A stretch of DNA of 64,000 nucleotides, taken from Candidatus Moanibacter sp. (GTDB lineage: Bacteria > Verrucomicrobiota > Verrucomicrobiia > Opitutales > UBA2987). Under the pieces are notes generated by a model that had not been told where the DNA came from, did no database searches, and saw nothing but the letters and a program-made list of their open reading frames with translations. Shown here piece after piece: positions 5,925 to 53,818 of this stretch. The stretch is taken from assembly GCA_965215885.1 (NCBI GenBank), contig CBDCEW010000104.1, positions 160,001 to 224,000 on the forward strand, given 5' to 3'. Positions within the stretch are counted from its first letter, which is position 1. Each line of letters starts with the position of its first letter. Position numbers and translations under genes: made by a program.

Positions 5925-6446
5925 CCGAAGCTTGCTTCGGCTTTAGTGGTATATGATGATAGGGGATGGGAAGTCGTTACATCCACAAAAGTCACAATGT
6001 ATCGGTGCTGATGTATCATCTGGTGTGCGCAGCGAAGTATCGTCGAGTTGTGATGAGTGAGCGTGTGGACGAGGTTCTGAGGGCAGCCTGCATCGAGATT
6101 GAAAAGCGCTGGGAGATTGTCTTCTTGGAAATAGGATTAGATCGAGACCATGCACACTTTCTGATCCAGTCGGTGCCGGCTTACAGTCCGACGAGGATCG
6201 TTACGACGGGGAAGAGTGTAACTGCGCGCGAAGTGTTTGCGAAAGCACCGGAGGTGAAGAAGCAACTGTGGGGCGGAGAGTTCTGGGGAAAAGGGTACTT
6301 CGTAAACACGGTGGGGCAACACAGCAGCGAGAGCGTGATCGCGGCCTATATCGCGAATCAAGGTGAGGAGGCAAATTACCAGCGATTGCATAAAGGGCAG
6401 TTGGAGTTGGGATTATTTTGAAAATGCCTCGGGGCTTGCCCCGAGG
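5925..6446 (+). mobile_element. IS200-type element (tnpA only) with subterminal hairpins
   Basis: Hairpins CCGAAGCTTGCTTCGG (5925-5940) and CCTCGGGGCTTGCCCCGAGG (6427-6446) flank tnpA; no tnpB. Confidence 0.8.
5966..6421 (+). CDS. tnpA: IS200/IS605 Y1 (HUH) transposase
   Basis: YHLVCAAKYRR, HUH motif DHAHFL, FWGKGYFVNTVG, catalytic YIANQ. Confidence 0.95.
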   Translation: MGSRYIHKSHNVSVLMYHLVCAAKYRRVVMSERVDEVLRAACIEIEKRWEIVFLEIGLDRDHAHFLIQSVPAYSPTRIVTTGKSVTAREVFAKAPEVKKQLWGGEFWGKGYFVNTVGQHSSESVIAAYIANQGEEANYQRLHKGQLELGLF

Positions 6447-8966: not shown

Positions 8967-11340
8967 CAGAACTCGCTATCATGCGGGTTGGCGGGCAGGG
9001 GGCAATCGCAGATACAATTCCCGGCTTTTAAGAGCTAAAGAAAACGGTAGGCTTCATCTTCGAACCATCAAATTCGAAGAAAAATGGAGAAACCTACCGT
9101 CAAAGAAGAGACCTTCTTACAGTGCATCCTTGGAGTGGACAAGGGTAATCCCTCGATCACGGTCTATCGGGATCTGAGGGAAGGCAAACTGCACGTCTAT
9201 TACGGGCATGAGCTTTTTGAAGTCGTAGAGGACGATCGGGAGCAAGTTGAATTCAAGCTATTGGAGGGGCGCCTCTACAATGCGGGGTTGAAGAAAGGGC
9301 GCTTAGAGAAGCAATTTGAGGTTGACCCCAAAACGATGAAGCGGTGGGGGGAGGCGCTTCAAAGCGGAGATGCCGAGACCTTAGCGCGAGTGCTGGCGGG
9401 ACGCAGCGCTCATCGCAAATTGACGAGGGAAATCCGGAGTTTTGTGCGGGTGCGCTTCGGGCAGATCTATGGGGAGAGTCGGTATGGCTACAGCAAGAAG
9501 ATACGGGGGGAGATCGAGGAGGTGTTCGGAGTTAACCTCAGTGGGGAAACTTTGCGCCCTGTCTTTAAGGAGCTTAAAGAGGCCCGGGCAAAGGAGGCCG
9601 AAGCCGAGAGGGCGCAAAATCGGGAGACTCCCTGGGATTGCCCGGAGGACTCGGGGAGGGACGAACAGGAGCAAGAAGCAGAAAATAGCCCCGAAAGCGA
9701 AGGGGACAATCGCAAGGGGTCTCCCGATTTTTCGAGGGAGAGCTCCGAAGCGGTGCAATGGTATCGGCACCTGGGAGTACTTCTGTTCAGTGCCGCGCTC
9801 AGAGAAGTCGCTCAGATTGATCGCGAAGAGGGCTGGCTTTTGAAACAATGGGTGGCTTGCGGGTTGTTGGCCGCGGTCAATATCGAGCAGAGCAAACTGC
9901 TCGATCTCGAAGACCTGCAAAAACTCATCGGGCGAGTCCTGTATACCCCCTATCTGCAACGCCAAAGCCTTAGCGCCCTGGCCGATGAAGGGCTTTTAAG
10001 AGAGATCCTCAGAGTGAACGCGAGGGGCCTGAATGCTTCGGATGAAGAGAGCTTTTATTATGATCCGCACACCAAACATTACACCGGAATGAGCAAGGTG
10101 CTGGCGGGATGGTGTCCGGGTATCCGTCTGGCCGACAAAGCGCTCCACAGCGATTTTATTCATACCCTCAAGGGCTATCCGGTCTATTTTGCGAGCACTG
10201 ACAACTATGAGGATATAAGGGAACGGTTTATCCCCAACTGCGAAGCGATGCTCGAGCTGGTGCAGCTGCCGGCTGATAAAAAGGTGAGTATTTACGTGGA
10301 CCGGGCGATCGCCGCGGAGTGGTTTTACGAAGCCATCGTGGAGCACCCTCAACTCGAAATCATTACCTGGGAAAAAGGTTACAAGGCCAGCGCCCAGCCC
10401 CTCCAACGGATCGACGGGCAGTTGCGCCTGCAGCGCGCGCGCAACCATGCCGAAGATCTCCAGGAGTATCATCTTCGCTATCAGCGGGGCCCCTGGAAGA
10501 AAAATCCTCAACTGGTGCAGTGGATCGTGGAGGCGACCAATCCAAAAAATCGAACCATTACCGTGAGCATCCTGGCGACCGATCAGCAGGCCCGAAATGA
10601 AGAGGTAATCAAAGGGATGTTCAGTCGCTGGATTCAGGAGAATGACTTCAAATACCTCGATAAGCACTTTGGGATTAATCAGATCACCTCTTATCGCACC
10701 GTCCACTACAAGCGATTAGCCCAACACCTTGAGGACAAGCAGGAGAAAAGCGGTGCCGCCAAAGCCCTCCTGAAGCAAAAACAGCAATGCACCGAAGAAT
10801 TGAAAAGACTGCTCCTGGCCGAGCATGCCCACCCGGGCAAAAGCGCCTCAAGGGGCGAAAAGATCCGTCGACTCGATCAGGCCCTCAAAGCCCTCCAACT
10901 CGAACTGGAGCAAATCGACACCGAATGCTCGAGGCTGCAGCGCCTCATTGATGAAAACTATGTCCGCCTGGACACCGCTAACAAGTCCCTCATGGATGCC
11001 TTGAAAATCTTCGCCCGTAACAGCTTCTACAAGCAGCTCGAACCCTTTAAAGCTCGCTACAACAACTATCGTGACGACCACGATCTGTTTCGCAATTTGA
11101 CTCACAGTGACGGCGTTCTTATAGAGAGGGGCTGTGCGGTCGAAGCGCATTTATTCCCCACCGCAACTTATCCCCCTCGGGTGCAGGCGGTGGTGCTTGA
11201 GTATCTGCAAACTCTCAATCAGAAGCCCTTACTGATGCCCGACGGTTCAGGCCGAAGAATCATCTTCCGACTGGGCAAAAAATCGGGATTTAAACTTGCG
11301 ATTGCATAGTGCCTTTAGAGGGGCAATATAGTGAGGTCTG
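8967..11340 (+). mobile_element. 2.37-kb IS-like element with atypical transposase and 5-bp target duplication AACCT
   Basis: Imperfect IRs CAGAACTCGCTATCATGC / GCAATATAGTGAGGTCTG; AACCT at 8962-8966 and 11341-11345; empty site in the paralogous repeat near 15121-15140. Confidence 0.85.
9084..11309 (+). CDS. Large putative transposase (741 aa)
   Basis: N-terminal HTH-like segment; FYYDPHTKHYTG, IYVDRA and RWIQENDFKY as a candidate DDE triad; coiled coil; fills the IR-bounded element. Confidence 0.75.
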   Translation: MEKPTVKEETFLQCILGVDKGNPSITVYRDLREGKLHVYYGHELFEVVEDDREQVEFKLLEGRLYNAGLKKGRLEKQFEVDPKTMKRWGEALQSGDAETLARVLAGRSAHRKLTREIRSFVRVRFGQIYGESRYGYSKKIRGEIEEVFGVNLSGETLRPVFKELKEARAKEAEAERAQNRETPWDCPEDSGRDEQEQEAENSPESEGDNRKGSPDFSRESSEAVQWYRHLGVLLFSAALREVAQIDREEGWLLKQWVACGLLAAVNIEQSKLLDLEDLQKLIGRVLYTPYLQRQSLSALADEGLLREILRVNARGLNASDEESFYYDPHTKHYTGMSKVLAGWCPGIRLADKALHSDFIHTLKGYPVYFASTDNYEDIRERFIPNCEAMLELVQLPADKKVSIYVDRAIAAEWFYEAIVEHPQLEIITWEKGYKASAQPLQRIDGQLRLQRARNHAEDLQEYHLRYQRGPWKKNPQLVQWIVEATNPKNRTITVSILATDQQARNEEVIKGMFSRWIQENDFKYLDKHFGINQITSYRTVHYKRLAQHLEDKQEKSGAAKALLKQKQQCTEELKRLLLAEHAHPGKSASRGEKIRRLDQALKALQLELEQIDTECSRLQRLIDENYVRLDTANKSLMDALKIFARNSFYKQLEPFKARYNNYRDDHDLFRNLTHSDGVLIERGCAVEAHLFPTATYPPRVQAVVLEYLQTLNQKPLLMPDGSGRRIIFRLGKKSGFKLAIA

Positions 11341-11577
11341 AACCTTGTTTTTCTAGCAAGTTTTTGCGTAGAAGAGGTTGTTGGTATTCAATAAACTGCA
11401 GTCGACCCGTCGTCGCTTCGCTTTGCCGAGGCAGGCAAGGTTTGGGACAAGGTTCGCGACCCGTCGTCGCACTGCTTTGCCGAGGCAGGCGAGGTTACCC
11501 AAGGGAAGTAGGAGTTTCCTTCTGCATTCGCGTCCATCTGCGTTCATCTGCGGTTCTCTTCTTCTTTTTTGGTTGCG
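11341..11577 (-). repeat. Composite intergenic repeat (paralog of 15110-15302, related to 26941-27306 and 36951-37288) carrying two 30-nt micro-insertions
   Basis: Direct alignment to 15131-15302. Confidence 0.8.
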
Positions 11578-12219
11578 CTAGGTCATCCGTGGTAGATTCA
11601 TTCTCTGTTTTTCTTCTTCCATAGCGGGATGCTCTGCGATCATCCCTAACGCTTTTCTCAGGAGGGTTTTTCCCGGTTCCACGCGGGGCCATGGAGAGGC
11701 CCCGGAGGGGTGGGGGAGGGGAATCGTGTCGAAAAGATGCTTGTCGTAGGTGCATCGGAAACTGCGGCCGACGATTGCATCGAGACTCGAGTATTTCATA
11801 AATTGCGTAATGGCCAGTCTGCCGACTGGAATGACTAATTCCGGTCGCAGAATTTCCATCTCGGCTTTCAGCCAGCGGGAGCAGTTGGAAATCTCTGTCC
11901 GATCCGGAACGCGGTCACCGCCCTTCGGCTTCTTGCCGGGGAAGCAGCGGCAGACAGCTGCCATGTAAATGCTGGAACGAAAATCTTCCTCACTGAGTCC
12001 ACATGATTCCTTGAACCACTGGAAGAGCGTCTTCCCCGCGGTCCAGGCAAACGGGCGTTGCAACCGGGGTTCCTTTTCACCCGGCGCCTGCCCCACCAGC
12101 AGCACCTTGCTCACGATGGCCCGTCCCGTCACCACCGGGCTCTGCATATTCGGGCATAAGGCACAGGCACGGAGGGCACTGGTGTGTTGAAGGATAGATT
12201 CTCGGCGATTCATGAACAT
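11578..12219 (-). CDS. Uracil-DNA glycosylase family protein
   Basis: CALC Fe-S ligands, LVGQAPG, RCFPG, PLPHPSGAS. Confidence 0.9.
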   Translation of the reverse strand: MFMNRRESILQHTSALRACALCPNMQSPVVTGRAIVSKVLLVGQAPGEKEPRLQRPFAWTAGKTLFQWFKESCGLSEEDFRSSIYMAAVCRCFPGKKPKGGDRVPDRTEISNCSRWLKAEMEILRPELVIPVGRLAITQFMKYSSLDAIVGRSFRCTYDKHLFDTIPLPHPSGASPWPRVEPGKTLLRKALGMIAEHPAMEEEKQRMNLPRMT

Positions 12220-12505
12220 AAGTTAGGAAAAGGGTTCAATCATGACTGAATCGGGGCCACAGAGCGACACAGAGATGCACGGAGGCACCTAGCGCAGCAA
12301 ATCCGCAACCAAACTGGTAGGTGCTTCCGTGGAGAAGAGAATTGAACAGAAGGAAACAAAGAGAACGGAGAGGGATGATGGGTATACAATGTCTGTTTAA
12401 AACTACGTTTTCTCTCTACGTCGCTAGGGGCGTTCTCAGTCGAGTGGCAGGAACGGTTGCATCGATCGCGAAAATAGGAGTTCGAACATACGATAGAACG
12501 AATTA

Positions 12506-12662
12506 GGAGTCGACTTCGCCTCGCGCGCAGCGCGTCTGAAACGCCAAGAAGAGAATTCCCCAAAGCGCCCCCTTTCGGCGCAGAATGCAGGTGCGCTTTT
12601 GGGAATTCTCTTCTTGGCGTTTCTCCATTCTGCCAAACGGCAGATTTGGCGAAGTCGACTCC
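12506..12662 (+). repeat. Structured four-way-junction repeat, copy C
   Basis: Perfect 15-bp IR GGAGTCGACTTCGCC / GGCGAAGTCGACTCC; ~30-bp near-perfect central stem. Confidence 0.85.
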
Positions 12663-12752
12663 TTCCGACTTTCAGTCTGTGTAACTTAAGTTCTCCGTGG
12701 TCCTCTGTGGTGCTCTGTGACCCCTCTTTTGCCTTTCTACTTTCCTTATTTC

Positions 12753-13334
12753 TTATTCGTTAAATGAAAAGAAGGCTTCCTCGGTATACTGCGCTCCTTC
12801 AGAAGAGAGTTTGCTCGAGAAGAGGGTGAATCCTTCCACCTTGAACGGCGCTGTTTCGAAATTCCGGTTATCCCGAACAAACTGTTTCACCGCGCCCGGT
12901 TTTGCGCGTGCCGTCCGCGCAATCGTCACATGCGGGTGATAGGCCCGCGTCTCAGCTTCGACGCCAAGAGCTACCAGGGTGTCTTCGATCTGTTTTTGCA
13001 ATTGAAAGAGGCGAGGATGCCCCTTATCGTGTCCAACCCAAACGATTCCAGGACGGCCACGGCGCGGGAAGCAACCGACCTCCTTCACCGGCAGGATGAA
13101 GAGCTCAACTCGAATTGGCGAGAGGAGCTCAACGATTCGCTCAGCCAATTCCGCATCGACGTCGCCGATGAACCGCAGAGTGAGGTGGAGGTTATCCTCC
13201 GGAACCCAGCGAAACTCGGGAAGCTGGTGCCGTATGCGTCGGATGGACGATTTCACGTGGTTGGGGGCGGAAATCCCGATGAAGAGGCGTTTCTCTTCCC
13301 GCTCTCTTGTAACTTGGATTTTGTCGTCTGTCAT
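12753..13334 (-). CDS. thpR: RNA 2',3'-cyclic phosphodiesterase (2H family)
   Basis: RLFIGI, two HxT motifs (HLTL, HVTI), FTLFSSKL. Confidence 0.92.
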   Translation of the reverse strand: MTDDKIQVTREREEKRLFIGISAPNHVKSSIRRIRHQLPEFRWVPEDNLHLTLRFIGDVDAELAERIVELLSPIRVELFILPVKEVGCFPRRGRPGIVWVGHDKGHPRLFQLQKQIEDTLVALGVEAETRAYHPHVTIARTARAKPGAVKQFVRDNRNFETAPFKVEGFTLFSSKLSSEGAQYTEEAFFSFNE

Positions 13335-13500
13335 GGCTTCCTGGTTTTAGAACACAGAGATTGAGCTGAATAAGGAAGGCAGGAAAGCAGGAAAAGAGAA
13401 TTGAAGTCCGGCGAGCCGGGAGAAACAGAGAGCAAGGGCACGCGCAATGTTATCTGTAAGATTGCGCCCGGCCTTCTGACTCCTTTTACTCTTCTGAGCT

Positions 13501-14444
13501 ATGCTTAAGGAACTCATCGATACACCCAAAGGTTGGGATGCGAACTCGATTGATGCGCCTGAATGCTGGATTTATTCCCTCTCGCAGGAGGTTTTGTCGG
13601 AGCTTGATTCGGCCTTAGCACCGGGCACTGGAAAGGTTACTCCGATTGAAGATTTAGCATTGTCCAAGTCCAGTGCGCGGTGCTGCCACAGGAATTTTGC
13701 CCCGGTAACGGAAGCACTGGATTCCGGCCGAGGTTTCGCCATCATTGATCGTGTTCCGGTCGACCGCTATACGCTTGATGAGGCCAAAGCGGCCTACTGG
13801 CTAATCGGTCAATCGGTCGGGTTTCCGATGAAACAGAACATGCGCGGGACACTTCTGTATGACGTCCGTGATACCGGCGCCGATGTCCGAAAGGGCGTCC
13901 GATTCTCGGTTACCAACTCCGAATCGACTTTTCATAATGACAATGCATTCGGTGCGACTATTCCCGACGTCGTGGGTTTGCTCTGTATACGGACAGCCCG
14001 GTCGGGAGGCAGGAGCCAACTGGTCAGCGCTTACGCAATTCATAACGAATTGCTGAAAAATCATCTCGAGGTTCTCGAAACTCTTTACGAGGATTTCTGC
14101 TTCGACTGTCGAGGAGAACATGCTCCCGATGAACCTCCCGTTTCGCAGACACAGGTTTTCACTGGGACGGACAGGATTTGACCAACCGATACCTCCACTA
14201 CTACATCCAAATCGGTCATGAAAAGATGAAACTGCCTCTCGATTCGAGGCAGGAATATGCCTTGGAGGTACTGGAGGAATTGCTGCGTCGCCCGGAATTC
14301 TGGGTGGAGTTCGATCTTAGACCCGGCCAGATCCTGTTTGTGAACAACCGAAGAATTTTGCATAATCGGACAGCGTTTCAGGACTTTCCGGATCCCGAAC
14401 GCCGTCGCCATTACGTTCGCCTGTGGCTTAACTGGCGGCAGTGA
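13501..14444 (+). pseudogene. TauD/TfdA-family dioxygenase split by one frameshift near 14160
   Basis: FHND motif, GLLC and GGRS in the first ORF; NNRRILHNRTAF and RHYVRLWL in the second; adding one base restores VFHWDGQDLTNRY. Confidence 0.8.
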
Positions 14445-14910
14445 TTCCGTTTGGCGGACTCTACGAGATTGAGAGATGAATAAGGAAGGAACCGCAGATG
14501 GACGCGAATGGACCCGTCTCCGTCCTCCGGGCTTCGCCGTGGCATGCGCGAATTTGGGAGGAAGACCCCGCGGATTCGAGGACACAGCGGGTTAATTCGA
14601 GAGGGAGTAACTAACGGATCAGGAAAACAACGGATTGTGAACAATTGGACCACAATTCTTTGAATACCATCCTCTTAAAATTCACCAAACAAAATACGTG
14701 TTCAGTCAACCAAGTTCTGATGGATAGTAGTGCAAATTGCTTTTGAAAAAAGAGGGCGGCAAGAAGATGCGATAGTTAAATTTCCGTGGAAACGGCGCCA
14801 GCCAGATAGTCATCGGCGTCCCGGATCGGGGAGTGAGAAGTAACCGCGGAATGAGGTTTTAATAAGGAAGGCAGGAAAGCAGGAAACTGCCCATACTATA
14901 GGCCGAGGTA

Positions 14911-15068
14911 GGAGTCGACTTCGCCTCTCCGCCATACGGGAGAGCCTGAAACGCGATGAGGAGCTTTCCCAAGATCGCGACTGCATTTTAGTCCACGAAT
15001 AGCGCTCTTGGGAAAGTTCCTCTTCGCGTTTCTCGACTCGCATAAGCGAGTTTGCGAAGTCGACACCC
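14911..15068 (+). repeat. Structured four-way-junction repeat, copy D (preceded by GTAG)
   Basis: GGAGTCGACTTCGC ... GCGAAGTCGAC with covarying internal stems. Confidence 0.8.
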
Positions 15069-15109
15069 TATTCTCCATCCTGCGACTGTGAGACCTGACT
15101 CCTCTATCT

Positions 15110-15302
15110 ATCCGTGCCACAATCCGGCAGAACCGTGTTTTCCGAGCTATTTTTTGCGCAGAAGAGGTTGGTATTCAATAAACTGCAGTCGACAAGGTTT
15201 GGGACAAGGTTCGCGACGAGGTTACCCAAGGGAAGTAGGAGTTTCCTTCTACATTCGCGTCCATCTGCGTGCATCTGCGGTTCTCTTCTTCTTTTTTGGT
15301 TG
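15110..15302 (-). repeat. Composite intergenic repeat; empty-site paralog of 8941-8966 plus 11346-11577
   Basis: Colinear alignment lacking the IS and both micro-insertions. Confidence 0.8.
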
Positions 15303-15716
15303 CCCGTTCGAGAGCCTCAGGGCCCCGAGCCTGTCGCGGGGCGGCTCTGCCACGCTAGGCCATCCGTCAAATCTCGCAGAGTCTGCTGTAAGGCAGATCC
15401 GCGGTCACGCTGATCCCGATTGACCTCAGGTCGAAAGATGTTTCCAGGTTGCGGCGCGCCGGGAGGAATCGAATTCTCTTCTCCATGTAAGGACCTACCA
15501 GTTTCCTGCTTTCCTTATTAATTCATCCCGGTACCGCGAGATCTTCAACGAACGCACCCGGATCCACCCTCCCGCAACTCGCATCCCCTCTTCCCACTGT
15601 CCACTGTTTACTGCTGAGCGCAGCGAAGTCCCGGTTTGCCGGGGTTCACTGTTTACTGACCACTGTTCACTAATTCTTCCTTCCTAACCATTTTTCTCTT
15701 GCCGGTTCGAAGTGTA

Positions 15717-15734
15717 GTGATAATTCTCTATCAC
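15717..15734. promoter_or_regulatory. Palindromic operator-like site GTGATA-N6-TATCAC
   Basis: Perfect 6-6-6 palindrome ~70 bp upstream of the AraC-type gene. Confidence 0.35.
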
Positions 15735-15804
15735 GACGGGAGTCATTGCGTGTGAAAGGTCCTTTCGAGCGCTTGATTCCGGTCATCGACAAGCACTCTC
15801 TCTC

Positions 15805-16185
15805 ATGCAGTTTCGGTATTACCTGACCGATCGGCCGCGCTTCGAACATTGGATCGAAATGGCGGAATTCTCCGGTTACAAGGCCCGGAAAATGGCTGAA
15901 ATATACGGCGTCAGTCTCCGCACCCTGGAGCGCTATTTCGAGGAAGACCTCGCCCGAAAGCCCCAGGAATGGCTCAACGAACAGCGCATGATCACGGCCC
16001 GGGAAATGCTCGAATCCGGGAGATCAATCAAGGAGACAGCCGCTGACCTCGGCTTTAAGCAGACAACTCACTTTCACCGCGAATATAAGCGGGTGCATGG
16101 GGTAACGCCGTCGATCTTCCAAAGGCATACCGCAGTCGGTGAGCGGAGTAGGAAAAGAAGAGGAACCGCAGATGAACGCGAATGA
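15805..16185 (+). CDS. AraC-family HTH transcriptional regulator (DNA-binding domain only)
   Basis: SLRTLERYF, PQEWL, SIKETAADLGFKQTTHFHREYKRVHGVTP. Confidence 0.9.
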   Translation: MQFRYYLTDRPRFEHWIEMAEFSGYKARKMAEIYGVSLRTLERYFEEDLARKPQEWLNEQRMITAREMLESGRSIKETAADLGFKQTTHFHREYKRVHGVTPSIFQRHTAVGERSRKRRGTADERE

Positions 16186-16284
16186 ACGCGAAGCGATATT
16201 ACCGTCTATTCGCTGTTCCTACCCCATCCGAACCGCTAATGAAACCAAATTGACGCCAATACTTCTGTGTTTGTGATTTCGCGT

Positions 16285-16692
16285 TCATTCGTGTCCATTC
16301 GCCGTTCCTTCCAGCACCACTCTTTTCCACTCCAATTTTGCTCGTTTGAAATTTAGGATCAATCCGACTTTCAGCCCCGTAATCTTCAGATAATTGAGCA
16401 TTTGTCCCATTTCGTGATCTCCGATTTGCTCAAAAACTTTGGTGTCTACCACGATCTGGTCATACACGATGAGATCGGGGATGTACTCGCCGACGCTCAC
16501 GCCCTTATAAAGCACATCGTATGTCTGTTGTTGGCTGACTGGTATATCCCTGAATCCAAACTCCACAACGAGCGCATTCTCATAAGGTTTCTCCAACAAC
16601 CCATGACCGAGCTCATTTAGCACCTCCATGGCGCATCCTACAATCTGGAATGCTTCCTCCTTTAAGGGATATCCGCGTTCATTTGCGTCCAT
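16285..16692 (-). CDS. GxxExxY protein (PD-(D/E)XK-like nuclease fold), copy 1
   Basis: GHGLLEKPY, YIPDLIV, VDTK, QMLNYLKITGLKVGLILNF. Confidence 0.95.
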   Translation of the reverse strand: MDANERGYPLKEEAFQIVGCAMEVLNELGHGLLEKPYENALVVEFGFRDIPVSQQQTYDVLYKGVSVGEYIPDLIVYDQIVVDTKVFEQIGDHEMGQMLNYLKITGLKVGLILNFKRAKLEWKRVVLEGTANGHE

Positions 16693-16832
16693 TCGCGGTT
16701 CCTTCCCCTTCCGAAACGCTAATCAACGCTATTCGACGCAAATATTTCTGTGCCTCTGCGTTCGCGTTCATTTGCGTTCCTTCGCGGTTCTCTTCTGTAG
16801 TGCGATCCCCAGCCCGGGCTCATACCAGGGGC

Positions 16833-17876
16833 TCAGGGGCTGAGTATTGGCCCGGTATACTGGTATCCCCCTGAGTCGAAGGGATCTTCTGCCATAAGCA
16901 GCGGTGTATCGAGATCAAGGATACTGATTCCGCCAAGCCCCAGCACCAGAGAAAACGAGCAGCCCATTGCTACTCGGGTCTCGATCATTCCACCGATCAT
17001 CAGACCGATGCCGTGCGCCTTACAGAGAGTCGCAATGTCTATCGTTTCAAACAGACCGCTCTTGGTGACCTTCAGATTTATTATATCCGCTGCCCCTTTC
17101 TGAATAACTCGCAACGCATCTTCCAGAGAAAAGACAGACTCGTCCGCTGCGACCGGAAAAGCGGAGTTTTCACGAACCTTTTTTAATCCTTTGATATCAA
17201 ACCGATCGACCGGTTGCTCGAAAGCTTCCACAGTCAGATCGATCGCCTCGATCTTTCTGGCGAATGCAATCGCCTCTGTTGGTGTATAACCTTGGTTCGC
17301 GTCGATAATCAGGGATATTCCGGGATAACGCTCCGCCAAAGCGATGACGCGAGCGGCATCCTCCTCAACATCTAATCCAACCTTTAATTTTCGAAACCCC
17401 TTTTTAGCGATCTCTAGTGATTCTTCGACGCCTCTAATCGGTATTGTGATGTCAGTCTCATAATTTCTGACATCAGCGCCACCCCAGAGCGCCCACAATG
17501 GAATCCCGCTCCCGCGACTGAACGCATCGACAATTGCTGTCTCGAACCCACAACGTACTGCCGCGAGATGAGGAATCCGGGATCGAATCTCCTTCGAAAT
17601 CTTTCGAAAGTTTGTTACCGAGCTTCCAATTACGAATTCCGCAAGGTCCTTCGCGGCGCTGAGGCTGTCCTCTCGGGTCTCTTTGGTCAGTTCGGGAAAG
17701 GGCGCTATCTCACCGTACCCGATGCACCCGTTCTCCAGTATCAAGGTAACTATTAGACTCCTCGCTACCGTTACTTCCCCTTTAGCGATTGTAAAGGCAT
17801 CGATTAGCGGCACTTCGATCGGTGAAATCTCAACATCGGCGATCGCAAATCCGCTGTCTGTACTGCGTTGTTTCAA
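16833..17876 (-). CDS. Dipeptide (L-Ala-D/L-Glu) epimerase family, copy 1; small deletions near the KxK motif and a truncated C-terminus, possibly pseudogenizing
   Basis: GYGE, KLKVG, IDANQGY, EQPV, ADES, NLK, DLD; shorter than copy 2 at EIAKKGFRKLK. Confidence 0.85.
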   Translation of the reverse strand: MKQRSTDSGFAIADVEISPIEVPLIDAFTIAKGEVTVARSLIVTLILENGCIGYGEIAPFPELTKETREDSLSAAKDLAEFVIGSSVTNFRKISKEIRSRIPHLAAVRCGFETAIVDAFSRGSGIPLWALWGGADVRNYETDITIPIRGVEESLEIAKKGFRKLKVGLDVEEDAARVIALAERYPGISLIIDANQGYTPTEAIAFARKIEAIDLTVEAFEQPVDRFDIKGLKKVRENSAFPVAADESVFSLEDALRVIQKGAADIINLKVTKSGLFETIDIATLCKAHGIGLMIGGMIETRVAMGCSFSLVLGLGGISILDLDTPLLMAEDPFDSGGYQYTGPILSP

Positions 17877-18384
17877 AACGAAATCGTCATGGAAGAAAGA
17901 GCCAATGAAAAACGGAACCGAGATTACCAGAGCGTGAACGCAATGCCAACCAGATCCTCATCGAGGTCCTGCGTGGGAGCTTGAGAGAACCAGAAATGTG
18001 AGCTGAATAAGGAAAGCAGGAATGCAGGAAAAGAGGGTGTCCCGGAGCGGAGCCATTTGGAGAATAGGGGTCGACTCTGTTGTAATCCCGCTCAGGTTCC
18101 AATTGTATCAGGTCAAATTGTAACGATTGATTCCGTTGCAAATTCCTTCTCGTCCGTAATTGCCCTGTGAAGTTGAAAGCTTTCCTGCCTTCCTGCTTTC
18201 CTTATTCATCAATCTTCTGTTCATCGATCCTCGCGTCTCGACAATATTCTTCGAACTGAAACCAGACTCATCATTCCAGAGTTCTATCATCATGTCACGG
18301 CGGAGATCCGCATCGGCGGAGAGCAGACGAATCATTCACTCACTTCCCCTCACTTTGCGTCTTAGCCGCTTTGCGTGAGGCCTC

Positions 18385-18736
18385 TATCACGTTACGGCGC
18401 AGTTCCGCATCGCCTAAACGGAGACAGATCCACTCTTTTCCGCCGTCAGCTTTCCGCACTCTCGAGCGCCGTTTTCAGGAGGCCTCGCCCGAAAACCCCA
18501 GGAATGGCTCAACGAGACAGATCCACTCTTTTCCGCCGTCGCCTCCGCATCTCGAGCGCCGTTTTCAGGAGGGCCTCGCCCGAAAACCCCAGGAATGGCT
18601 CAACGAACAGCGCATTATGCCGGCCCGGGTGATGCTCGAAAGCGGGAAGTCAATCAAGGAGACCGCAGCCGACCTAGGTTTTAAGCAGACGACCCACTTT
18701 CACCGGGAATATAAGCGGATGCATGGGGTGACGTAG
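18385..18736 (+). pseudogene. Degraded AraC HTH paralog
   Basis: Homologous to 15805-16185; N-terminus lost, ~93-bp internal tandem duplication, premature TAG. Confidence 0.8.
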
Positions 18737-19011
18737 TCGATCTTCCAAAGGCATACCGCAGTCCGTGAGCGGAGCCGTTATAGAAGAGGAACCGCAGATG
18801 CACGCAAATGAACGCGGATTGCTTCTAAGAGAGGAGGACGAGCACAATGGAATCTCGGAAACGTGAAAAAATAGGGATGGAACCGCAAATGGACGCAGAT
18901 GAACGCGAATGAACGCGAAGCGATATTACTGTCTATTCGCTGTTCCTTCCCCATCCGAACCGCTAATGAACGCAAATTGAAGCCAATACTTCTGTGTTTC
19001 TGATTTCGCGT

Positions 19012-19419
19012 TCATTCGTGTCCATTCGCGGTTCCTTCCAATACCACTCTTTTCCACTCCAATTTTGCTCGTTTGAAATTTAGGATCAATCCGACTTTCA
19101 GCCCCGTAATCTTCAGATAATTGAGCATTTGCCCCATTTCGTGATCTCCGATCTGCTCAACAACTTTGGTGTCTACCACGATCTGGTCATACACGATGAG
19201 ATCGGGGATGTACTCGCCGACGCACACGCCCTTATAAAGCACATCGTATGTCTGTTGTTGGCTGACTGGTATATCCTTGAATCCAAACTCCACAACGAGC
19301 GCATTCTCATAAGGTTTCTCCAACAACCCATGACCGAGCTCATTTAGCACCTCCATGGCGCATCCTACAATCTGGAATGCTTCCTCCTTTAAGGGATATT
19401 CGCGTTCATTTGCGTTAAT
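19012..19419 (-). CDS. GxxExxY protein, copy 2 (equivalent start codon is ATT; start uncertain)
   Basis: About 6 aa differences from copy 1; start region overlaps the epimerase stop codon. Confidence 0.85.
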   Translation of the reverse strand: MNANEREYPLKEEAFQIVGCAMEVLNELGHGLLEKPYENALVVEFGFKDIPVSQQQTYDVLYKGVCVGEYIPDLIVYDQIVVDTKVVEQIGDHEMGQMLNYLKITGLKVGLILNFKRAKLEWKRVVLEGTANGHE

Positions 19420-20797
19420 CTGCGGTTCTCTTATGGAGTCCCAGTCCGGGCTCATACCATGGGCTGAGTATTGGCCCAGTATACTGATATCCCCTTGAGT
19501 CGAAGGGATCTTCTGCCAGAAGCAGCGGTGTATCCAGATCCAGGATACTGATTCCACCAAGCCCGAGAACGAGAGAGAACGAACAGCCCATCGCCACCCG
19601 GGTCTCGATCATTCCACCGATCATCAGACCGATGCCATGCGCCTTACAGAGAGTCGCAATGTCTATCGTTTCAAATAGACCGCTCTTGGTGATCTTCAGA
19701 TTGATGATATCCGCTGCCCCTTGCTCAATAACCCGCAATGCATCTTCCAGAGAAGACACAGACTCGTCGGCTGCGATTGGAAAGGCGGAGTTCTCACGAA
19801 CCTTTCTTAGCCCGTCGATATCGTAACGATCGACCGGTTGTTCGAAGGCCTCCACAGTTAAATCGATCGTCTCCAATCTTTTCGTAAAAGCAATTGCCTC
19901 GGTGGAAGTATATCCCTGGTTCGCGTCAATAATCAGGGATACGCCAGGATAACGTTCCGCCAAAGCGATGACGCGAGCGGCATCCTTCTCGATATCCAAT
20001 CCCACTTTTAACTTAAATTTGCGAAACCCCTTTTCGTGCCACTTTTCAGCGATCTGGAGTGAATCGCCAACATCCCTGATCGGAATAGTGATGTCGGTCT
20101 CGTGATCCCTGACATCAGCGCCACCCCAGAGCGCCCACAGTGGCAGCCCGCACCCGCGACTGAACGCATCAACAATTGCCGTTTCAAATCCACAGCGTAC
20201 CGCCGCAAATCGCGGAATCCGTGATCGGATCTCAGTCGAAATATTTCGAAAATAAGCTGCAATGTTCCCGATTACGAAATCCGCGATGTCGTTGGCGGCG
20301 TTGAGGCTGTCTTCCAGGGTCTCACCGGTCAGTTCGGGAAACGGCGCTATCTCACCGTACCCGATGCACCCGTTCTCCAGTTTCAGGTTAACGATTAAAT
20401 TCCGCGCCACGGTTACTTCCCCTTTTGCAACGGTAAAGGCATCCATTAGCGGCAGATCGATCGGTGATACCTCAACATTGGCGATCGTGAAGTCACGAAT
20501 CGCCGCAGATTCCCCGAATTCCGCCCTGTCTGGAGGGGAAGTTAGCTTTTTACGGGTGTCGCTCAAATTGTCCCCCACTACATCGAATTCATCATTGAAG
20601 AAAGAGCCAACCAAAAACGGGACTGAGATTGTGAGAGCGTCGTGTAAAGCTAAATGAACGTCCTGAATTTTCTGAAGGAGTCGGGCGAGGGTCATGCCGT
20701 CGATTTCGATTCTGGTGCAAAACCGCTCGATTTGAATACCGCGACTACGTTCTTGCGAACGCGGAGGGTTTTTCACCAGAATCCAATTTTTGGACAA
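19415..20797 (-). CDS. Dipeptide epimerase family, copy 2, with N-terminal extension (probable start ATG 20695 or later)
   Basis: Full enolase-superfamily motifs KFKLKVG, DANQGY, EQPV, DES, DLD, PGLG. Confidence 0.88.
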   Translation of the reverse strand: MSKNWILVKNPPRSQERSRGIQIERFCTRIEIDGMTLARLLQKIQDVHLALHDALTISVPFLVGSFFNDEFDVVGDNLSDTRKKLTSPPDRAEFGESAAIRDFTIANVEVSPIDLPLMDAFTVAKGEVTVARNLIVNLKLENGCIGYGEIAPFPELTGETLEDSLNAANDIADFVIGNIAAYFRNISTEIRSRIPRFAAVRCGFETAIVDAFSRGCGLPLWALWGGADVRDHETDITIPIRDVGDSLQIAEKWHEKGFRKFKLKVGLDIEKDAARVIALAERYPGVSLIIDANQGYTSTEAIAFTKRLETIDLTVEAFEQPVDRYDIDGLRKVRENSAFPIAADESVSSLEDALRVIEQGAADIINLKITKSGLFETIDIATLCKAHGIGLMIGGMIETRVAMGCSFSLVLGLGGISILDLDTPLLLAEDPFDSRGYQYTGPILSPWYEPGLGLHKRTAD

Positions 20798-21045
20798 ATA
20801 CAGCGGCCGGTTTGCCGAAGTAGGGCGGCAGTAGGCGGCAAATGATCGTACCGATTGCTGCTTTTTCGTCGAGACTTTCAGCTACGAGTGTCAGGTGTCG
20901 CTATACGATAGTATTTGTCGCCGATAGATACTGAATTCATGTTGTGTGGCTGGGAAATTCAGGATTCGATATCTGGATCTAAACCAGTATTCTTGGCTAC
21001 TTGAGGCCGTGGGAATGGAAAAATAGAAGCAATTAGGAAAAGGTC

Positions 21046-21876
21046 ATGGCGCGTCCAACAATGAATTGGATTCTCATAAGTACGATCAACGTGATGATCC
21101 TTGGAATCGTGTTGTTGCAGGGTGGTTGCAGGTCAATCGACAAAGTTACACCAGAACGCAGCATTCAAAAAGCCTGGCTAAAAGAGGGTCAGATCGATGC
21201 TTTTAATAAGGCTCTTCACGATGCTTTCGATGAATGGAAGAATGAGGGAGAGAATAAAAGAGAGTTCTTTGAATATGAGATTCTTGGGCCGCGCACGATC
21301 TACTCAGGGAATGATAGCGACGAATATCATTGGGAGATTTCCCACCCGGAGTATGTAAACGTGGTTTTGGCTGCACCAAGCGCAGTTGAGCCAGTAAACG
21401 AAACACTTACAAAGGTGAAGGTTGTTTCAAAAGACGTAGAAAATATCCGGCAATTCTCAATACGATTAGTTTGGACTTATGAAGTTGAAAAAAGGTTTTT
21501 TTCAGAAGTAATTCAGGTTAAGAGCGGGGAAAGGCCAGAACAAAGTGGTGATATTGAAGCTTGGTTTCAAGTGGAAGACTTTGCGAATGCAAGAAAGCAT
21601 TTTGGCTTAGTCTTTGCTGAGACGTTTTACTGTATCAAAGTCTTCCTGAAAAATGGATATGATGTCCCAGTGCGCGTTGATGCGGGTTCAATTGAGCTGC
21701 CGATATTTTATATCTCCAAAATGAGCGAGGAAACTAAGGATCCATATTCTTATCAATTCGGTTATTATCGGCAGTTTCGGAGAGGAGTATTTGCTTTTGA
21801 GTATGATAATATCATTTACAGGGTGGAGTCCGCATTTCGTGTACCTATGAATTTCACAGCAATTATTAATACATTT
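21046..21876 (+). pseudogene. Putative lipoprotein truncated by ISL3
   Basis: Hydrophobic leader ending LQGG-C; AT-rich; the frame runs into the IS at 21877. Confidence 0.6.
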
Positions 21877-23359
21877 GCCTCGTCAGCAGAATCTGTGGGT
21901 TATTTCGGGTTCAGGCAAGTCGCCCATGGTATGAAATAGGGCGATCTTAAGCACTTCGAAGCTCTTAAAGCCGTATGCTTTTCTGATAGTGAGATTTATA
22001 TTGCGGTTAAAGCCCTCCACAATGCCGCAGGAAAAGGCCTTTTTGGCCCGAAACCAGTTGAGGATGAGCGGCTCGTGTTTGCGCACCGAGCGCACGAACC
22101 TTTTGATCGGTTTGAGGCGCGAACGCATGGCGCGCGTGCACCATTTTTTCAGATACCATTGGGCCCAGTAGGGACTTTTATAATGCCACAAGAGCTGAAA
22201 GCTCTCCTTTAGTAGATAGGCCCGCACGCTCTTCAGATCGTATTGGAGCACCTCCTTGAGGCGGATCTGTTGGGTGGGGGTGAGATTTTGCGGATTTTTC
22301 AAGAAACAGTATTTGCTTTTGACCAGCACGTTGATGTAGCCGTCCCGTTGCAATCGCCTGGCTTCCGCAGCACGAATCTCATTGAGGGCCTTGTTCAGGT
22401 TGGCTACCAAGTGGAAGCGATCGAGGATGTGCAGCGCCTGGGGTGCCTTTTTCTTGATCACTTTGAGGTAAGGCTTCCACAGATCCGAGCAGACGTAGAG
22501 GATCTGGCTGCTCTTTTGCGCTCCCAATTCCCAGAAAAAACGCAAGAGCGATTTTACGTTGCGCTTATTGAATACGCCCAATAGCCGCCGCCGCCCCTCG
22601 TCAAGCTGGTAGACCACGGTGAGATAGTGATGGCCTCGATGATACTGCACCTCATCGACTCCGATCGCCTCAATCCCGCTCATATCGCGCCGTTTGAGCC
22701 CCCAACGCACCATCGCCTCGACCGACTCGAAGACGTTGCGCCAGTTCGTGCGAAAAACCCTTGCCGTCTCTTCCCAGCTCAAGCGCCTCGCCCACTGGGC
22801 CAGAAACCATTGCATTGGCCAACTCAGATGACTCTTGCCCTTGGCCCAGGGCACCTCTTCGACCTTCACCCCGCACCGCCGGCAATTGACCCGCCGCATG
22901 CGGTAACGAAAATACACCTTCATCCCCCACAAGGGCACAAATTCAAAATGCCTCGCCTCGCTCATGTGGTCGTAGCCGCTGGCCGTCCGGCCACACCCCG
23001 AACAGCACACCCGACTATTCTTGCGCGGCTCAATCTGCACCACAATCGCCTCCTCCGATTTCACCATTTCCATACTCGCCTTTGCGTAAACAAAGCTCTT
23101 GAGCCAATAGCACCGATTCAGTAGCGTTTTGATGAGCACTGGGTCCTCCGTGTTCAGGATGTATTTTCGGTACTACTTTCATCCTCGGAACGGCCCGGTG
23201 CTTCAACCTTTCAATCCCATATGCAAAGAAAACACCGACCAGCCCCTCCGGCTGTGGAGGAGCGGGATTCAGGGCAGCGCCCTGACTTCTCCTTGTGCTC
23301 ACCGACTCTATTTCCTCTTGTAAGCGACGTTACCCACCCACAGATTCTGCTGTAGACCC
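21877..23359 (-). mobile_element. ISL3-family element, copy 1 (1483 bp, no target duplication)
   Basis: IRs GCCTCGTCAGCAGAATCTGTGGGT / ACCCACAGATTCTGCTGTAGACCC; appears identical to 32330-33812. Confidence 0.95.
21883..23139 (-). CDS. ISL3 transposase
   Basis: Zn-finger CSGC/CRRC, IGVDE, CSDLW, LDRFH, VEGFN, RKAYGF. Confidence 0.95.
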   Translation of the reverse strand: MLIKTLLNRCYWLKSFVYAKASMEMVKSEEAIVVQIEPRKNSRVCCSGCGRTASGYDHMSEARHFEFVPLWGMKVYFRYRMRRVNCRRCGVKVEEVPWAKGKSHLSWPMQWFLAQWARRLSWEETARVFRTNWRNVFESVEAMVRWGLKRRDMSGIEAIGVDEVQYHRGHHYLTVVYQLDEGRRRLLGVFNKRNVKSLLRFFWELGAQKSSQILYVCSDLWKPYLKVIKKKAPQALHILDRFHLVANLNKALNEIRAAEARRLQRDGYINVLVKSKYCFLKNPQNLTPTQQIRLKEVLQYDLKSVRAYLLKESFQLLWHYKSPYWAQWYLKKWCTRAMRSRLKPIKRFVRSVRKHEPLILNWFRAKKAFSCGIVEGFNRNINLTIRKAYGFKSFEVLKIALFHTMGDLPEPEITHRFC

Positions 23360-23422
23360 AAAAAATTAAGTTCTGATGGATTGTAGTTCAAACAGTCCCA
23401 AACATCTACATGATTTGCTTGT

Positions 23423-23899
23423 ATGTCAGAGGATGATAAGTGTAGCGAAGTAGAGTATTTCGATCCCGCCGCAACGGTCGCCGCTGTGATGTTTGAGGAG
23501 ATGGATGGACTGACTCATGTGCTGTTAACTCGAAGGGAGGGAGAGCCTTTTCGAGACATGTGGTGTTTCCCAGGCGGCCATATCGACAAATTCGAACAGT
23601 CTGATCAAGCGATCGATCGGGAGGTCCGGGAGGAAACCGGGCTCAGTTTTAGCGGGGAAACCTTCGGATCATTTGATGAGATTTTCCCGAGTCTTGGTAT
23701 TCACAACGTGGTTATTGCCTACGCGGGGAGAGGAACCGGTGAGCTTGTTGCGCAAGAAACAGAAGTTAGTGAAATCAAATGGGTTCCGCTGTCAAAGGCG
23801 CTTGAGATGGATTTGGCGTTTACACACAAAAAGGTGCTGGATGCGTTTATTCGTTGGCACATTCAAACTGCAACGCCCTCACATGGAGAAGAGAATTGA
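23423..23899 (+). CDS. NUDIX hydrolase
   Basis: Nudix box PGGHIDKFEQSDQAIDREVREETGL; LAFTH. Confidence 0.92.
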   Translation: MSEDDKCSEVEYFDPAATVAAVMFEEMDGLTHVLLTRREGEPFRDMWCFPGGHIDKFEQSDQAIDREVREETGLSFSGETFGSFDEIFPSLGIHNVVIAYAGRGTGELVAQETEVSEIKWVPLSKALEMDLAFTHKKVLDAFIRWHIQTATPSHGEEN

Positions 23900-24240
23900 T
23901 TAGCGTGAGAATATTCAGCCGAATGTGAAAGGAACTCAGGAAAGCGTGACAATACGGAGGGATGAAGAAAGATAGCCCTTCGACGGTTCGACAAGCTCAC
24001 CGCAGGCAGAGCTCAGGACAGGCCGCAAAAATGCGCAAGAAAAACGCAAAAACCTGACGGTATTGTTTTGCGCCTCTTTGTGGCAAAAATGAATCCAGCC
24101 GTGGTAAACTTCAACAGTGCGAATGTGAGGTTAACGCAGCGAAACAACGGAAACTGTGAACAATTCTGCTCTACACAAGCCGGCCTGCCTGCCTCCTTTG
24201 TGAGTGCGGTGATTATCTGCGAATAGGAAATTTGGCCGGA

Positions 24241-24660
24241 ATGGGAAAAATTGAAAACCCTGAGGTTGCTGCAGTATTCGATAACTACCCGGAGCGGATG
24301 CGTGAGAGACTGATGCTCCTTCGGCGGTTGGTTATTGATACAGCATCAGAGACGGAGGGCGTCGGCAGCCTCGAGGAAACGCTGAGATGGGGTGAACCGA
24401 GTTATCTGTCTAAGGGTGGTAGCACAATCCGAATGGACTGGAAGGAGTCCAAACCGGATCAATATGCCCTGTATTTTCATTGTAGAACAAGGCTGGTTGA
24501 AACGTTCAGGGAACTCTATGGTGGCATGTTCCGGTTTGAGGACAACCGGGCAATTGTATTTGATGAAGACGAGGAGATCCCAGTTAAGGAATTGAAGCAC
24601 TGTATTTCGTTGTCCCTCACTTACCATCGTAGAAAGCACCTGCCAATGTTAGGCGTATGA
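24241..24660 (+). CDS. DUF1801 (YdhG-like) domain protein
   Basis: ETLRWGEPSY, GSTIRMDW, YFHCRT, NRAI, LTYH. Confidence 0.8.
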   Translation: MGKIENPEVAAVFDNYPERMRERLMLLRRLVIDTASETEGVGSLEETLRWGEPSYLSKGGSTIRMDWKESKPDQYALYFHCRTRLVETFRELYGGMFRFEDNRAIVFDEDEEIPVKELKHCISLSLTYHRRKHLPMLGV

Positions 24661-24663
24661 ATC

Positions 24664-25209: not shown

Positions 25210-25248
25210 ATCCATAGTCTCAATCGCCTTCGAAAGGGCGGAAATAAA

Positions 25249-25935: not shown

Positions 25936-26190
25936 ATCCCGGCGCGCCGGGAGAAACAGAGGGAAACGGAGAGGAATGAGCGAAGAAAAATATGCCCACG
26001 GATGGCTCCGCAGTACCACGGATCTGCCGTAGAGCAGACTCTACGAGATTTAACTTGGTAATTCCCCGTTAGATGTGTGAAGTTTGCGGGTTAACGCCCC
26101 GCTTGACGGCGATAATTGAGTTCTGCATAACAGTAGACGCTCAAACTGACCATTATTCGTCTGTGCTCCATAGCGGCAGGTGACTCGTTC

Positions 26191-26691: not shown

Positions 26692-26891
26692 TTGCGCCCC
26701 GAAAACGACGGGAGTCGATGGAATTTATCCTGGCTGGGCGATCGTTATATACGGAACGTGGGAAGTGTGATTTCTGCGGCAGGACTAACGCTCGCGTAAG
26801 AAGAGAAATCGAGACTGAGATTCCTTCAGTGGAGGGCTCTCGACTTGCCATGATTTGTGAAAGCTGCGACAAAGTGGCGGCCGCGGGTTAA
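26688..26891 (+). CDS. Small putative zinc-finger protein
   Basis: CDFC...CESC; ATGA overlap with the upstream gene. Confidence 0.45.
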   Translation: MIAPRKRRESMEFILAGRSLYTERGKCDFCGRTNARVRREIETEIPSVEGSRLAMICESCDKVAAAG

Positions 26892-26940: not shown

Positions 26941-27306
26941 AGAGCCGCAACCAAGAAAGAAAAAGAGAACCGCAAATGGACGCAAATGAACGCGAATAAA
27001 GAGGAAGGCACCACGGATTCGAGCCGTCTTCGCTGCGCTGCGCCGTGCGATGGAAAACCGCAGATTTGATGAAGAGGGATTCCCAACGGTTCGACAGGCT
27101 CACCCGAACTCATAAACAGTGAGGAGATTCTTGATCGAATCGAGAAGGTAACTCGGAATACTCTGGTAACCTTGCATGCCTCGGCAAAGCAGAGCGACGA
27201 CGGGTCCCGAACCTCGCCCCGAACCTTGTCGGCCCCACAACTTGGAATACCAACATGTTACACTCCAAAACGTGTTCAAAAAACTAAGTTCTGACGGATA
27301 GTAATA
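26941..27306 (+). repeat. ~340-365-bp composite intergenic repeat
   Basis: Near-identical to 36951-37288. Confidence 0.85.
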
Positions 27307-28921: not shown

Positions 28922-28930
28922 TAATAGTGG

Positions 28931-33812: not shown

Positions 33813-33895
33813 TTAATTAATTGGTGAACTGTTGAATTTGTGAATTGTTAATGAACGATGGATCCGTCTTCGCTCCACTCTTCGCCGCGGCAGGC

Positions 33896-36950: not shown

Positions 36951-37288
36951 CAGAGCCGCAACCAAAAATGGAAAATAGAACCGCAAATGGACGCAAATGA
37001 ACGCGAATTAAGAGGAAAGCACCACGGATTCGAGAAAACCGAAGATTCGATGAAGAGGGATTCCCAACGGTTCGACAGGCTCGCACCGAACTCATAAACA
37101 GTGAGGAGATTCTTGATCGAATCGAGAAGGTAACTCGGAATACCCTGGTAACCTTGCATGCCTCGGCAAAGCAGAGCGACGACGGGTCCCGAACCTTTGT
37201 CGCGAACCTTGTCGACCCCACAACTTTGAATACCAATATGTTACACTCCAAAACGTGTTCAAACCTAAGTTTTGACGGATTGTAATAC
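36951..37288 (+). repeat. Composite intergenic repeat, paralog of 26941-27306
   Basis: Direct alignment. Confidence 0.85.
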
Positions 37289-38766: not shown

Positions 38767-39119
38767 ACAGAAGGAAACAAAGAGAACGGAGAGGGAAAGA
38801 GAGGAACCGCGAATGAACGCGAATGGACGCGAATTTGGGAGAAAGAGCCCGCGGATTCGAGGACACCGCGGAATTGTTCAAGAGGGATTTCTCAACGGAT
38901 TCGAGAATACAACGGTGTCCAGTCCTGATTAAAAGTGGACACGAGTTTAATCGGTTTCGGGAGAATCTTCGTCGTAAGCCTCGTCGTCAGCTTTGTCGAA
39001 ACATCGAACGTCGAAATCAGCACTTTCCTCCTTCGTTCCCGCTCCTGACCACTGAGGACTGGGCGGTGTTCGATTTTCGAAGCCGGATTAGGAGCACAAT
39101 GCCAGAAGGACATCCTAGT

Positions 39120-53673: not shown

Positions 53674-53818
53674 AGGCCGAAGAGAGAGAGAGAAGAGGGG
53701 TCACCCCTTCGACGGGGCTCAGGGCAGGAGAGATCACCGAGCCGTCTCCGCTCCGCTGCGCCGTGCCAGGGGAAGCACAGAGGACCACGGAGAGTTTAAG
53801 CCCGAGGAAATGAAGAGG

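Follow-up and report, generated by a model that had tools for sequence, protein, structure and literature searches.

A widespread 30-nucleotide mobile element with a proposed one-base targeting rule, and its association with a small GIY-YIG nuclease gene

The window considered here (the whole stretch of DNA analysed, 64 kb) belongs to a genome of 6.36 Mb in 105 contigs, referred to below as G000. It contains two ISL3 copies with 99.8% identity over 1496 bases (21865-23359 and 32318-33812) and a diverged tandem duplication (15805-17876 and 18371-20797, with pieces 83-96% identical) carrying an AraC-type gene, a PD-(D/E)XK (PF13366) gene region and an enolase-superfamily gene. The hosts of the short insertions studied here (26939-27317, 36950-37299, 11380-11576 and 15170-15303) are composite, multicopy intergenic repeats of 200-350 bases made of short tandem units. 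An earlier note on this DNA had listed eight copies of the insertion and four empty paralogous sites; all eight copies were found where it had placed them, and the sites at 15193, 15217, 38828 and 37034 read as it had described. A strict pattern matched 7 times in the window, at 6 loci of which one was counted twice, whereas 100 shuffles gave 0; it misses two G-type variants, those at 27024 and 53742. Copies and empty sites are the following:

11406..11436, forward strand: C-type copy, with junction C at 11406, 29-nt motif at 11407-11435, internal partner G at 11431 and junction C at 11436 (one of the two junction Cs is the host base); empty paralogue at 15193
11460..11490, forward strand: C-type copy with another hairpin loop, located in the following unit of the host repeat that holds the 11406 copy; empty paralogue at 15217
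14513..14547, forward strand: C-type copy whose inner hairpin is longer (insert of 34 nt); empty paralogue at 38828
15170..15240, forward strand: empty paralogue of the host sites at 11407 and 11461; the junction bases are 15193 and 15217
27023..27053, forward strand: G-type copy with junction G, internal C and a decayed tail; empty paralogue at 37034
27174..27204, reverse strand: C-type copy
33863..33895, forward strand: variant copy in which a left junction T faces internal G as a wobble pair, with C as the right junction base and a decayed inner hairpin; a search for its empty paralogue found none
37020..37050, forward strand: empty paralogue of the host site at 27024; the junction base is G (37034)
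37156..37186, reverse strand: C-type copy at the same host site as the 27174 copy (host duplication)
38815..38845, forward strand: empty paralogue of the host site at 14514; the junction base is C (38828)
53741..53771, forward strand: G-type copy whose empty paralogues imply two extra bases, not one

Since the copies at 27174 and 37156 lie within one duplicated host repeat (27053-27317 versus 37034-37299), they probably represent a single insertion.

Read on the strand used in the earlier note, the consensus of the element is N-CCGTC, three bases (TTC, GTC, TCC or GCC), an inner hairpin, three bases (TTT, TAC, TGC or TTC), GCCGWG-N' and a CRNG tail. The number of pairs in the inner hairpin ranges from 2 to at least 7, its sequence changes being compensated, and covariation indicates an outer stem of 6 bp closed by the N:N' pair. 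Both arms of this stem change together in sister families, e.g. CCGCC/GGCGG, CCACC/GGTGG, CCTCC/GGAGG and CAGCC/GGCTG. The fold structure rests on covariation, because thermodynamic folding of single copies gave 0 of 8 strands better than their own shuffles; it probably needs non-standard pairs or a protein. No curated Rfam model matched in the window, and a search with 8 loci returned tRNAs only. Sister families of the CCGCC, CCACC, CCCCC and CCTCC types coexist in G000 (for example at C11:4565, C41:25743, C88:7301, C97:154171 and C96:107418), and the copies listed follow the same terminal-pair pattern, having been pre-selected for that pair.

The genome-wide motif search proposed in the earlier note returned 85 strict copies in G000 and, with the junction bases and the fifth-last motif base left free, 162 relaxed matches, compared with 7, 6 and 5 in three shuffled genomes. 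Four of the 162 were removed by eye as chance matches, leaving 158 copies. An empty paralogue (at most 3 mismatches across 28 flank bases) was located for 99 of these, and its flanks are one base apart in 88 cases, zero bases apart in 7 and 3-5 bases apart in 4. As the flanks are exactly one base apart in 88 of 99 sites, the insert corresponds to the motif plus one base, which gives 30 nt for the common form. The informative cases on the owner of this extra base (an element that starts with N, one that ends with N, or a one-base duplication) point both ways. The claim of precise boundaries, which the earlier note had staked on their constancy over more copies, thus holds to one base in 88 of 99, and the observation of precise insertions of about 30 nt is confirmed. 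Deletion between direct repeats, which that note had named as the competing explanation, cannot account for the empty sites, because the flanking repeat is one base only. The copies occupy at least 39 unrelated flank contexts, the largest flank cluster holding 81 of the 158, and some copies have clearly been multiplied along with their host; empty sites outnumber filled ones in 6 of the 7 host motifs counted. The idea of a very small, oriented and precisely inserting mobile element, residing mostly in other intergenic repeats, is supported. The features of a MITE (DDE-mobilised) are absent, in that the copies have no TIRs and no target duplication of 2 bases or more; their ends are asymmetric, with a 4-nt tail, and at most one base is shared in 88 of 99 sites. 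As to strain-level polymorphism, no locus was seen both with and without a copy: among the matches listed between contigs of 4 runs and window positions 9100-29000, none has a 30-nt gap at a copy, the contigs being fragmented at repeats.

Five of the 158 copies lie inside ORFs of at least 200 codons. One of them (C102:173622, gene 172752-174530) adds 10 codons in frame to the DNA polymerase/3'-5' exonuclease PolX, in a variable loop which is shorter in all 5 readable relatives (of 11 fetched). Copies also nest inside one another at the same loop position, and there are tandem runs. A general preference for hairpin loops as targets was considered and is not supported, the junctions in predicted loops (14/48, 33/93 and 24/85) being compared with fractions of 0.27, 0.27 and 0.24 in shuffles. 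Copies at C2:22584, C80:63024 and C105:319395 of G000, and at C1:405445 of the related genome G006, occupy one site of a shared host repeat, of which C105:323300 and C105:323856 are empty copies. We take this host repeat to resemble group II intron domain V, and Rfam gave no intron match for it at the three G000 loci.

The junction follows a base-pair rule, which is new and was missed by the earlier note. In 155 of 162 G000 copies (72 expected from the margins), the base preceding CCGTC and N' are Watson-Crick complements, and all four combinations of left junction and N' are found (C:G 99, G:C 29, T:A 18 and A:T 9). The right junction base is complementary to N' in 143 of 162 (72 expected), and N5 equals N3 in 140 of 162. 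Counted over the 39 flank clusters, the left rule is followed in 37 and the right rule in 29, while the best of 20000 permutations reached 23 and 22, respectively. Matches from other genomes and from phage contigs were filtered on the inner hairpin only (135 of 143 and 83 of 123 kept); the first phage scan consisted mostly of chance matches in GC-rich contigs, and its 24 filtered matches are excluded from the counts. The left junction is complementary in 123 of 135 copies from other genomes (57 expected) and in 73 of 83 copies of the CCGCC type in phage contigs (36 expected). The right rule is weak outside G000, with 77 of 135 (46 expected) and 40 of 83 (28 expected). One junction base therefore obeys N' almost always, while the other tends to. 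The statement in the earlier note that every copy follows GAN is correct within the window and fails genome-wide, where CAT, CTT, GTC, TAA and CAA are also present, the base preceding the junction base being A in 30 of the 39 flank clusters. The target is thus not a fixed GAN motif, but has a base which varies with an internal base of the element.

The orientation of the copies is not random with respect to replication, for whose direction the local GC skew was used as a proxy. In G000 the strand on which the element is written is the G-rich strand in 61 of 88 scorable copies (61:27, p=0.0004), and at the host sites the ratio is 31:9 for filled and 122:93 for empty sites (Fisher p=0.014). The bias relative to the direction of flanking genes is weaker (36:21 in G000). 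In G006 the skew was taken from 40 sampled 20-kb stretches; among the first 100 of 119 matches, 32 were ambiguous and dropped, the others giving 51:17. One amplified host family, which accounts for 13 scorable copies, gives 7:6 by itself, and the ratio without it is 44:11. The G-rich strand is the lagging-strand template. Insertion into the lagging-strand template is described for IS200/IS605 elements (PMC6006769), and the same bias is seen here in both G000 and G006, with the G-rich strand taken as the template. Orientation to this strand is what is expected for single-strand insertion at replication forks, and the replication-strand bias together with the junction base-pair rule supports the suggestion, made from the window alone, that the element moves as single-stranded DNA.

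The element family spans many phyla. Among 30 relatives of G000, G006 is the only one rich in copies of the CCGTC type (64, versus 0-4 in the others), while a scan of one genome per species gave at least 118 loci. The 80 loci with titles belong mostly to Verrucomicrobia, Lentisphaerae, Kiritimatiellae and Planctomycetes, and also to Desulfobacterota, Nitrospirae, Acidobacteria, Alphaproteobacteria, Chlorobi and one Peribacteraceae genome. No tRNA adjoins the free copies in 31 loci, and no Pfam family recurs among 173 ORFs adjoining sampled copies (80 from phage contigs and 93 from genome loci, a subset of 193), which include one GIY-YIG and no Y1 protein.

The search for genes flanked by the motif, for which the earlier note had listed GIY-YIG among its candidates, points to a stand-alone SLX1-like GIY-YIG gene of about 83-84 aa, located behind tRNA or tmRNA 3' ends and carrying the fold of the element in its leader. 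In the phage contig L060, several element variants lie directly upstream of an 83-aa GIY-YIG gene, and the intact nuclease gene of G000 (C95:78565-78819), 54% identical to it, follows a displaced tmRNA 3' end and carries a T-type variant in its leader. Among 75 usable metagenome loci of this nuclease subfamily, the strict fold occurs within 300 nt upstream in 24 and downstream in 4, with 0-4 in shuffled sequences; the control, 1500 random G000 windows, gave 41. At the level of the class, the fold lies upstream of 22 of 32 core nuclease genes, one of them in G000, when a relaxed tail is allowed, and of 6 of 32 if the strict tail is required; the relaxation followed the reading of the leaders, the controls being treated alike, and at least one of the 22 matches (L508) looks spurious. 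None of 8 distant GIY-YIG genes of the same class has the fold upstream. Across 150 genomes of the class, scored for at least two copies and for the core nuclease, 22 have both, 10 the element only, 9 the gene only and 109 neither (odds ratio 26.6), with the core subfamily delimited at E<=1e-26, a cut placed afterwards at the gap seen in the scores, and related genomes not being independent.

The leaders follow a common plan. The tRNA CCA end provides the first bases of fold copy 1, copy 2 comes next in the opposite orientation, and the 3' half of copy 1 closes the leader ahead of the start codon. In 115 leaders picked by protein alone, the anchored second copy is present in 47, its terminal pair being Watson-Crick in 44, and the closing 3' half in 69, while shuffles give 0. 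The ends of a tRNA or tmRNA are found just upstream in 41 of 59 nuclease loci scanned. In G000 the nuclease gene follows a duplicated tmRNA 3' end (C95:43038-43392 and C95:78426-78819) 35 kb downstream of the intact tmRNA, and therefore marks the far end of a probable island in the tmRNA. In 10 of 100 nuclease loci (L335, L355, L358, L360, L366, L367, L389, L585, L588 and L590) the stop codon is directly followed by a repeat of part of the leader; most of these repeats begin 0-7 bases past the tRNA CCA. The genome G124 has three nuclease genes with a 364-nt period. The unit of nuclease gene and leader seems to duplicate with imprecise ends.

The protein belongs to PF01541, and its nearest solved relatives by sequence are UPF0213 BH0048 and SLX1 (1zg2 matched at E 1.4e-12, in addition to SLX1 chains). 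Its predicted model has a pLDDT of 91.8, with SLX1 as top Foldseek match, and the Tyr, Gly, Arg, His, Asn and Glu columns vary little or not at all among 12 nuclease sequences. The protein resembles the SLX1/UPF0213 branch of GIY-YIG proteins in both sequence and fold. It differs from that branch in consisting of one domain of 83 aa, with a helix pair of the form ExYLK(S/T)(G/H)SG at the C-terminus, and in having its gene behind tRNA ends and preceded by a structured leader. NCBIfam contains no model of this nuclease. In the literature found, no role is assigned to small stand-alone UPF0213-like GIY-YIG proteins, and no mobility role is described for SLX1/UPF0213-like ones; SLX1 is described as cutting 1-3 nt from a branch point (PMC6902002).

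Taken together, these results lead us to favour, with somewhat more belief than doubt, a non-autonomous element of about 30 nt which would move as folded single-stranded DNA, would depend on the small stand-alone GIY-YIG nuclease and would have its target picked by one base pair. The fold would form on the exposed single-stranded lagging-strand template, where the SLX1-like nuclease would bind it and cleave it at the foot of the outer stem. The base N' would pair either with the end base of the element itself or with the incoming target base, resulting in a one-base target selection, and the ends would be rejoined via strand transfer by the nuclease or by host ligase and repair. The free copies would be derivatives of the leader module, moved in trans. 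The link between nuclease and element is strong but correlative, being drawn from gene neighbourhoods and co-occurrence, and makes the nuclease the likely enzyme. Several observations count against this reading: the leader copy in G000 has a variant stem (GCCGG), which differs from that of the CCGTC family, 10 of the 32 genomes with at least two copies have no core-subfamily match, and two extra bases are implied at 7 of the 99 empty sites. GIY-YIG nucleases work by hydrolysis, and we know of none that joins DNA. The broader proposal, that this protein of about 83 residues acts as, or in place of, the transposase of a 30-nt single-stranded DNA element, is accordingly offered more tentatively, as a possibility about which we remain slightly more doubtful than convinced: it would open a new class of single-strand transposition guided by DNA, comparable to HUH/REP systems though built on another enzyme fold, with one internal nucleotide setting the target base, anchored at tRNA 3' ends and present in many bacterial phyla and in their phages. 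A guide logic based on pairing is known for the IS608 guides and for GTAG in REPs (PMC8266576), and that of the element would be similar but reduced to one base.

The hydrolytic chemistry of the family would also suit a nuclease which only nicks. The element would then never be excised as a unit, host repair or leader RNA/cDNA would patch the nick, and the match at the junction would be a one-base microhomology or duplication. This is in agreement with the imprecise leader duplications after the stop codon (10 of 100 loci), with the position of the leader on tRNA read-through transcripts, where it pairs with the CCA end, and with N5 being equal to N3 in 140 of 162 G000 copies. We nevertheless regard it as unlikely, since the boundaries of the insert are constant to one base in 88 of 99, microhomology alone leaves the tracking between junction and internal base in all four combinations unexplained, and orientation follows the GC skew (61:27) more clearly than the direction of flanking genes (36:21).

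A slightly lower probability is given to the HUH enzyme that the earlier note had proposed, according to which a Y1 protein (IS200-type TnpA or RAYT-like) would move the element in trans by peel-and-paste, the GIY-YIG link being secondary. Y1 chemistry fits the lack of a real target duplication, the complementary guide base and the lagging-strand bias (PMC8266576, PMC6006769), and Y1 genes are at hand, with 29 matches in G000 and at least one gene in 30 of the 32 element-rich genomes. They are, however, present in 116 of the 150 class genomes, including 86 of the 118 with fewer than two copies (30 with both, 2 with the element only, 86 with the gene only and 32 with neither; odds ratio 5.6), and a physical link to the element is missing. 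The fold is found upstream of 1 of 28 RAYT-like genes, the Y1 genes of G000 lie at chance distance (3 of 28 matches are within 300 nt of a copy or descriptor match, about as expected by chance), and none of the 173 adjoining ORFs encodes a Y1 protein. The GTAG tetranucleotide is absent from the element consensus on either strand. The window itself carries an IS200-like TnpA gene (Y1_Tnp, 5966-6421), one of nine near-identical copies in G000, with no element within 5 kb. None of the nine has an element within 1.8 kb, and the element does not share its ends with these TnpA-encoding IS. An HUH enzyme as the mover is thus not borne out by the gene neighbourhoods.

It is improbable that the GIY-YIG leaders are merely favoured landing sites, with the elements as passengers relying on some other host enzyme. 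Elements do nest in each other and in leaders (L155, L208, L292, L366 and L389), and GIY-YIG accounts for only 1 of 173 ORFs beside randomly sampled copies. The leader copies are, however, fixed in position and orientation, and their outer stem has been re-written to pair with the tRNA CCA end, which makes them an ancestral part of the unit rather than a random accumulation; distant GIY-YIG genes behind tRNAs, furthermore, lack the fold (0 of 8). That there is no mobility at all, with empty sites arising by deletion between direct repeats and copies spreading only with their host repeats, is hardly credible given the one-base flanking repeat, the 39 or more unrelated contexts, the excess of empty sites in 6 of 7 host motifs, the spread over many phyla and the in-frame polX copy in a loop that is shorter in the 5 readable relatives, even if one flank cluster makes up 81 of 158 copies and some were multiplied with the host.

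Several known systems share part of these features. Small dispersed repeats (SDRs) are 21-27 nt in size, with nesting and a shared structure; they were reported from cyanobacteria and are not known to have an enzyme. Like those of Nostoc and its relatives (Elhai et al. 2008, PMID 18599681), the 30-nt family is a very small dispersed mobile repeat with precise filled and empty sites; it is set apart, as judged from SDR descriptions only, by its presence in PVC bacteria, Desulfobacterota, CPR and others, by the junction base-pair rule and by the linked nuclease. Precision of this kind is cited in PMC4390886 for SDR5, which inserts between two bases of HIP1. The REP/REPIN sequences with their RAYTs are also short, structured, non-autonomous repeats, with a small nuclease gene flanked by master copies, and their cleavage site is described as being chosen by base complementarity with a guide (PMC8266576), to which the one-base complementarity seen here by covariation can be compared. 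The 30-nt element differs in having no GTAG tag, in not being a simple palindrome, in having no RAYT beside it but a GIY-YIG partner, and in a partner base that naturally varies among four classes. With IS200/IS605 elements (IS608, ISDra2) it has in common the oriented insertion without multi-base duplication, the preference for the lagging-strand template and, as proposed for the 30-nt element, the guide-target pairing (PMC6006769, PMC8266576), its own insertion being both oriented and precise, although the single shared base could be a one-base duplication; it is unlike them in being 30 nt long with one hairpin unit, in its one-base rather than tetranucleotide guide and in having no HUH transposase linked to it. 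The element thus works like REP/RAYT and IS200/IS605 systems, but carries neither their tag nor their enzyme. CGTC-tagged palindromic repeats are small dispersed hairpins for which no dedicated transposase is described (Di Nocera et al. 2013, PMC3733652), and the 30-nt motif also has CGTC near its 5' end. According to that description, CGTC is there an unpaired tag, followed by an 8-9-bp stem and a CCA-type tail, whereas in the 30-nt element it belongs to the outer stem and varies together with the partner strand in the sister families (CCGCC, CCACC, CCTCC and CAGCC). No prior description of the element or of the nuclease-leader unit was found in the titles and abstract openings searched.

The element is a real and widespread 30-nt mobile element with a proposed one-base targeting rule. 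In kind it is a short structured repeat with a partner nuclease; should the nuclease turn out to perform the move, it would be new as a category. What moves repeats of 20-40 bases without a coding partner has been an open question since the SDRs and the CGTC repeats, and the present finding pairs one small UPF0213-like protein with one element of this size. Switching one internal base is predicted to switch the target base. If the proposal is true, the system would be among the smallest transposition systems, would reshape intergenic DNA and protein loops (as by the 10-codon insertion in polX) in many phyla, and could serve as a compact tool for precise short insertions.

Two micro-palindromes of the window, CCCGCTSAGCGGG (46417-46429) and CTGCCGTACGGCAG (36919-36932), have 228 and 214 matches, respectively, counted on both strands, which corresponds to about 110 sites each. 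The first also makes up the inner hairpin in long variants of the 30-nt element. Partial tRNA copies next to a second GIY-YIG subfamily (G000 C36:37805, L343 and L349) contain these palindromes or similar ones, and the micro-palindromes are possibly parallel systems.
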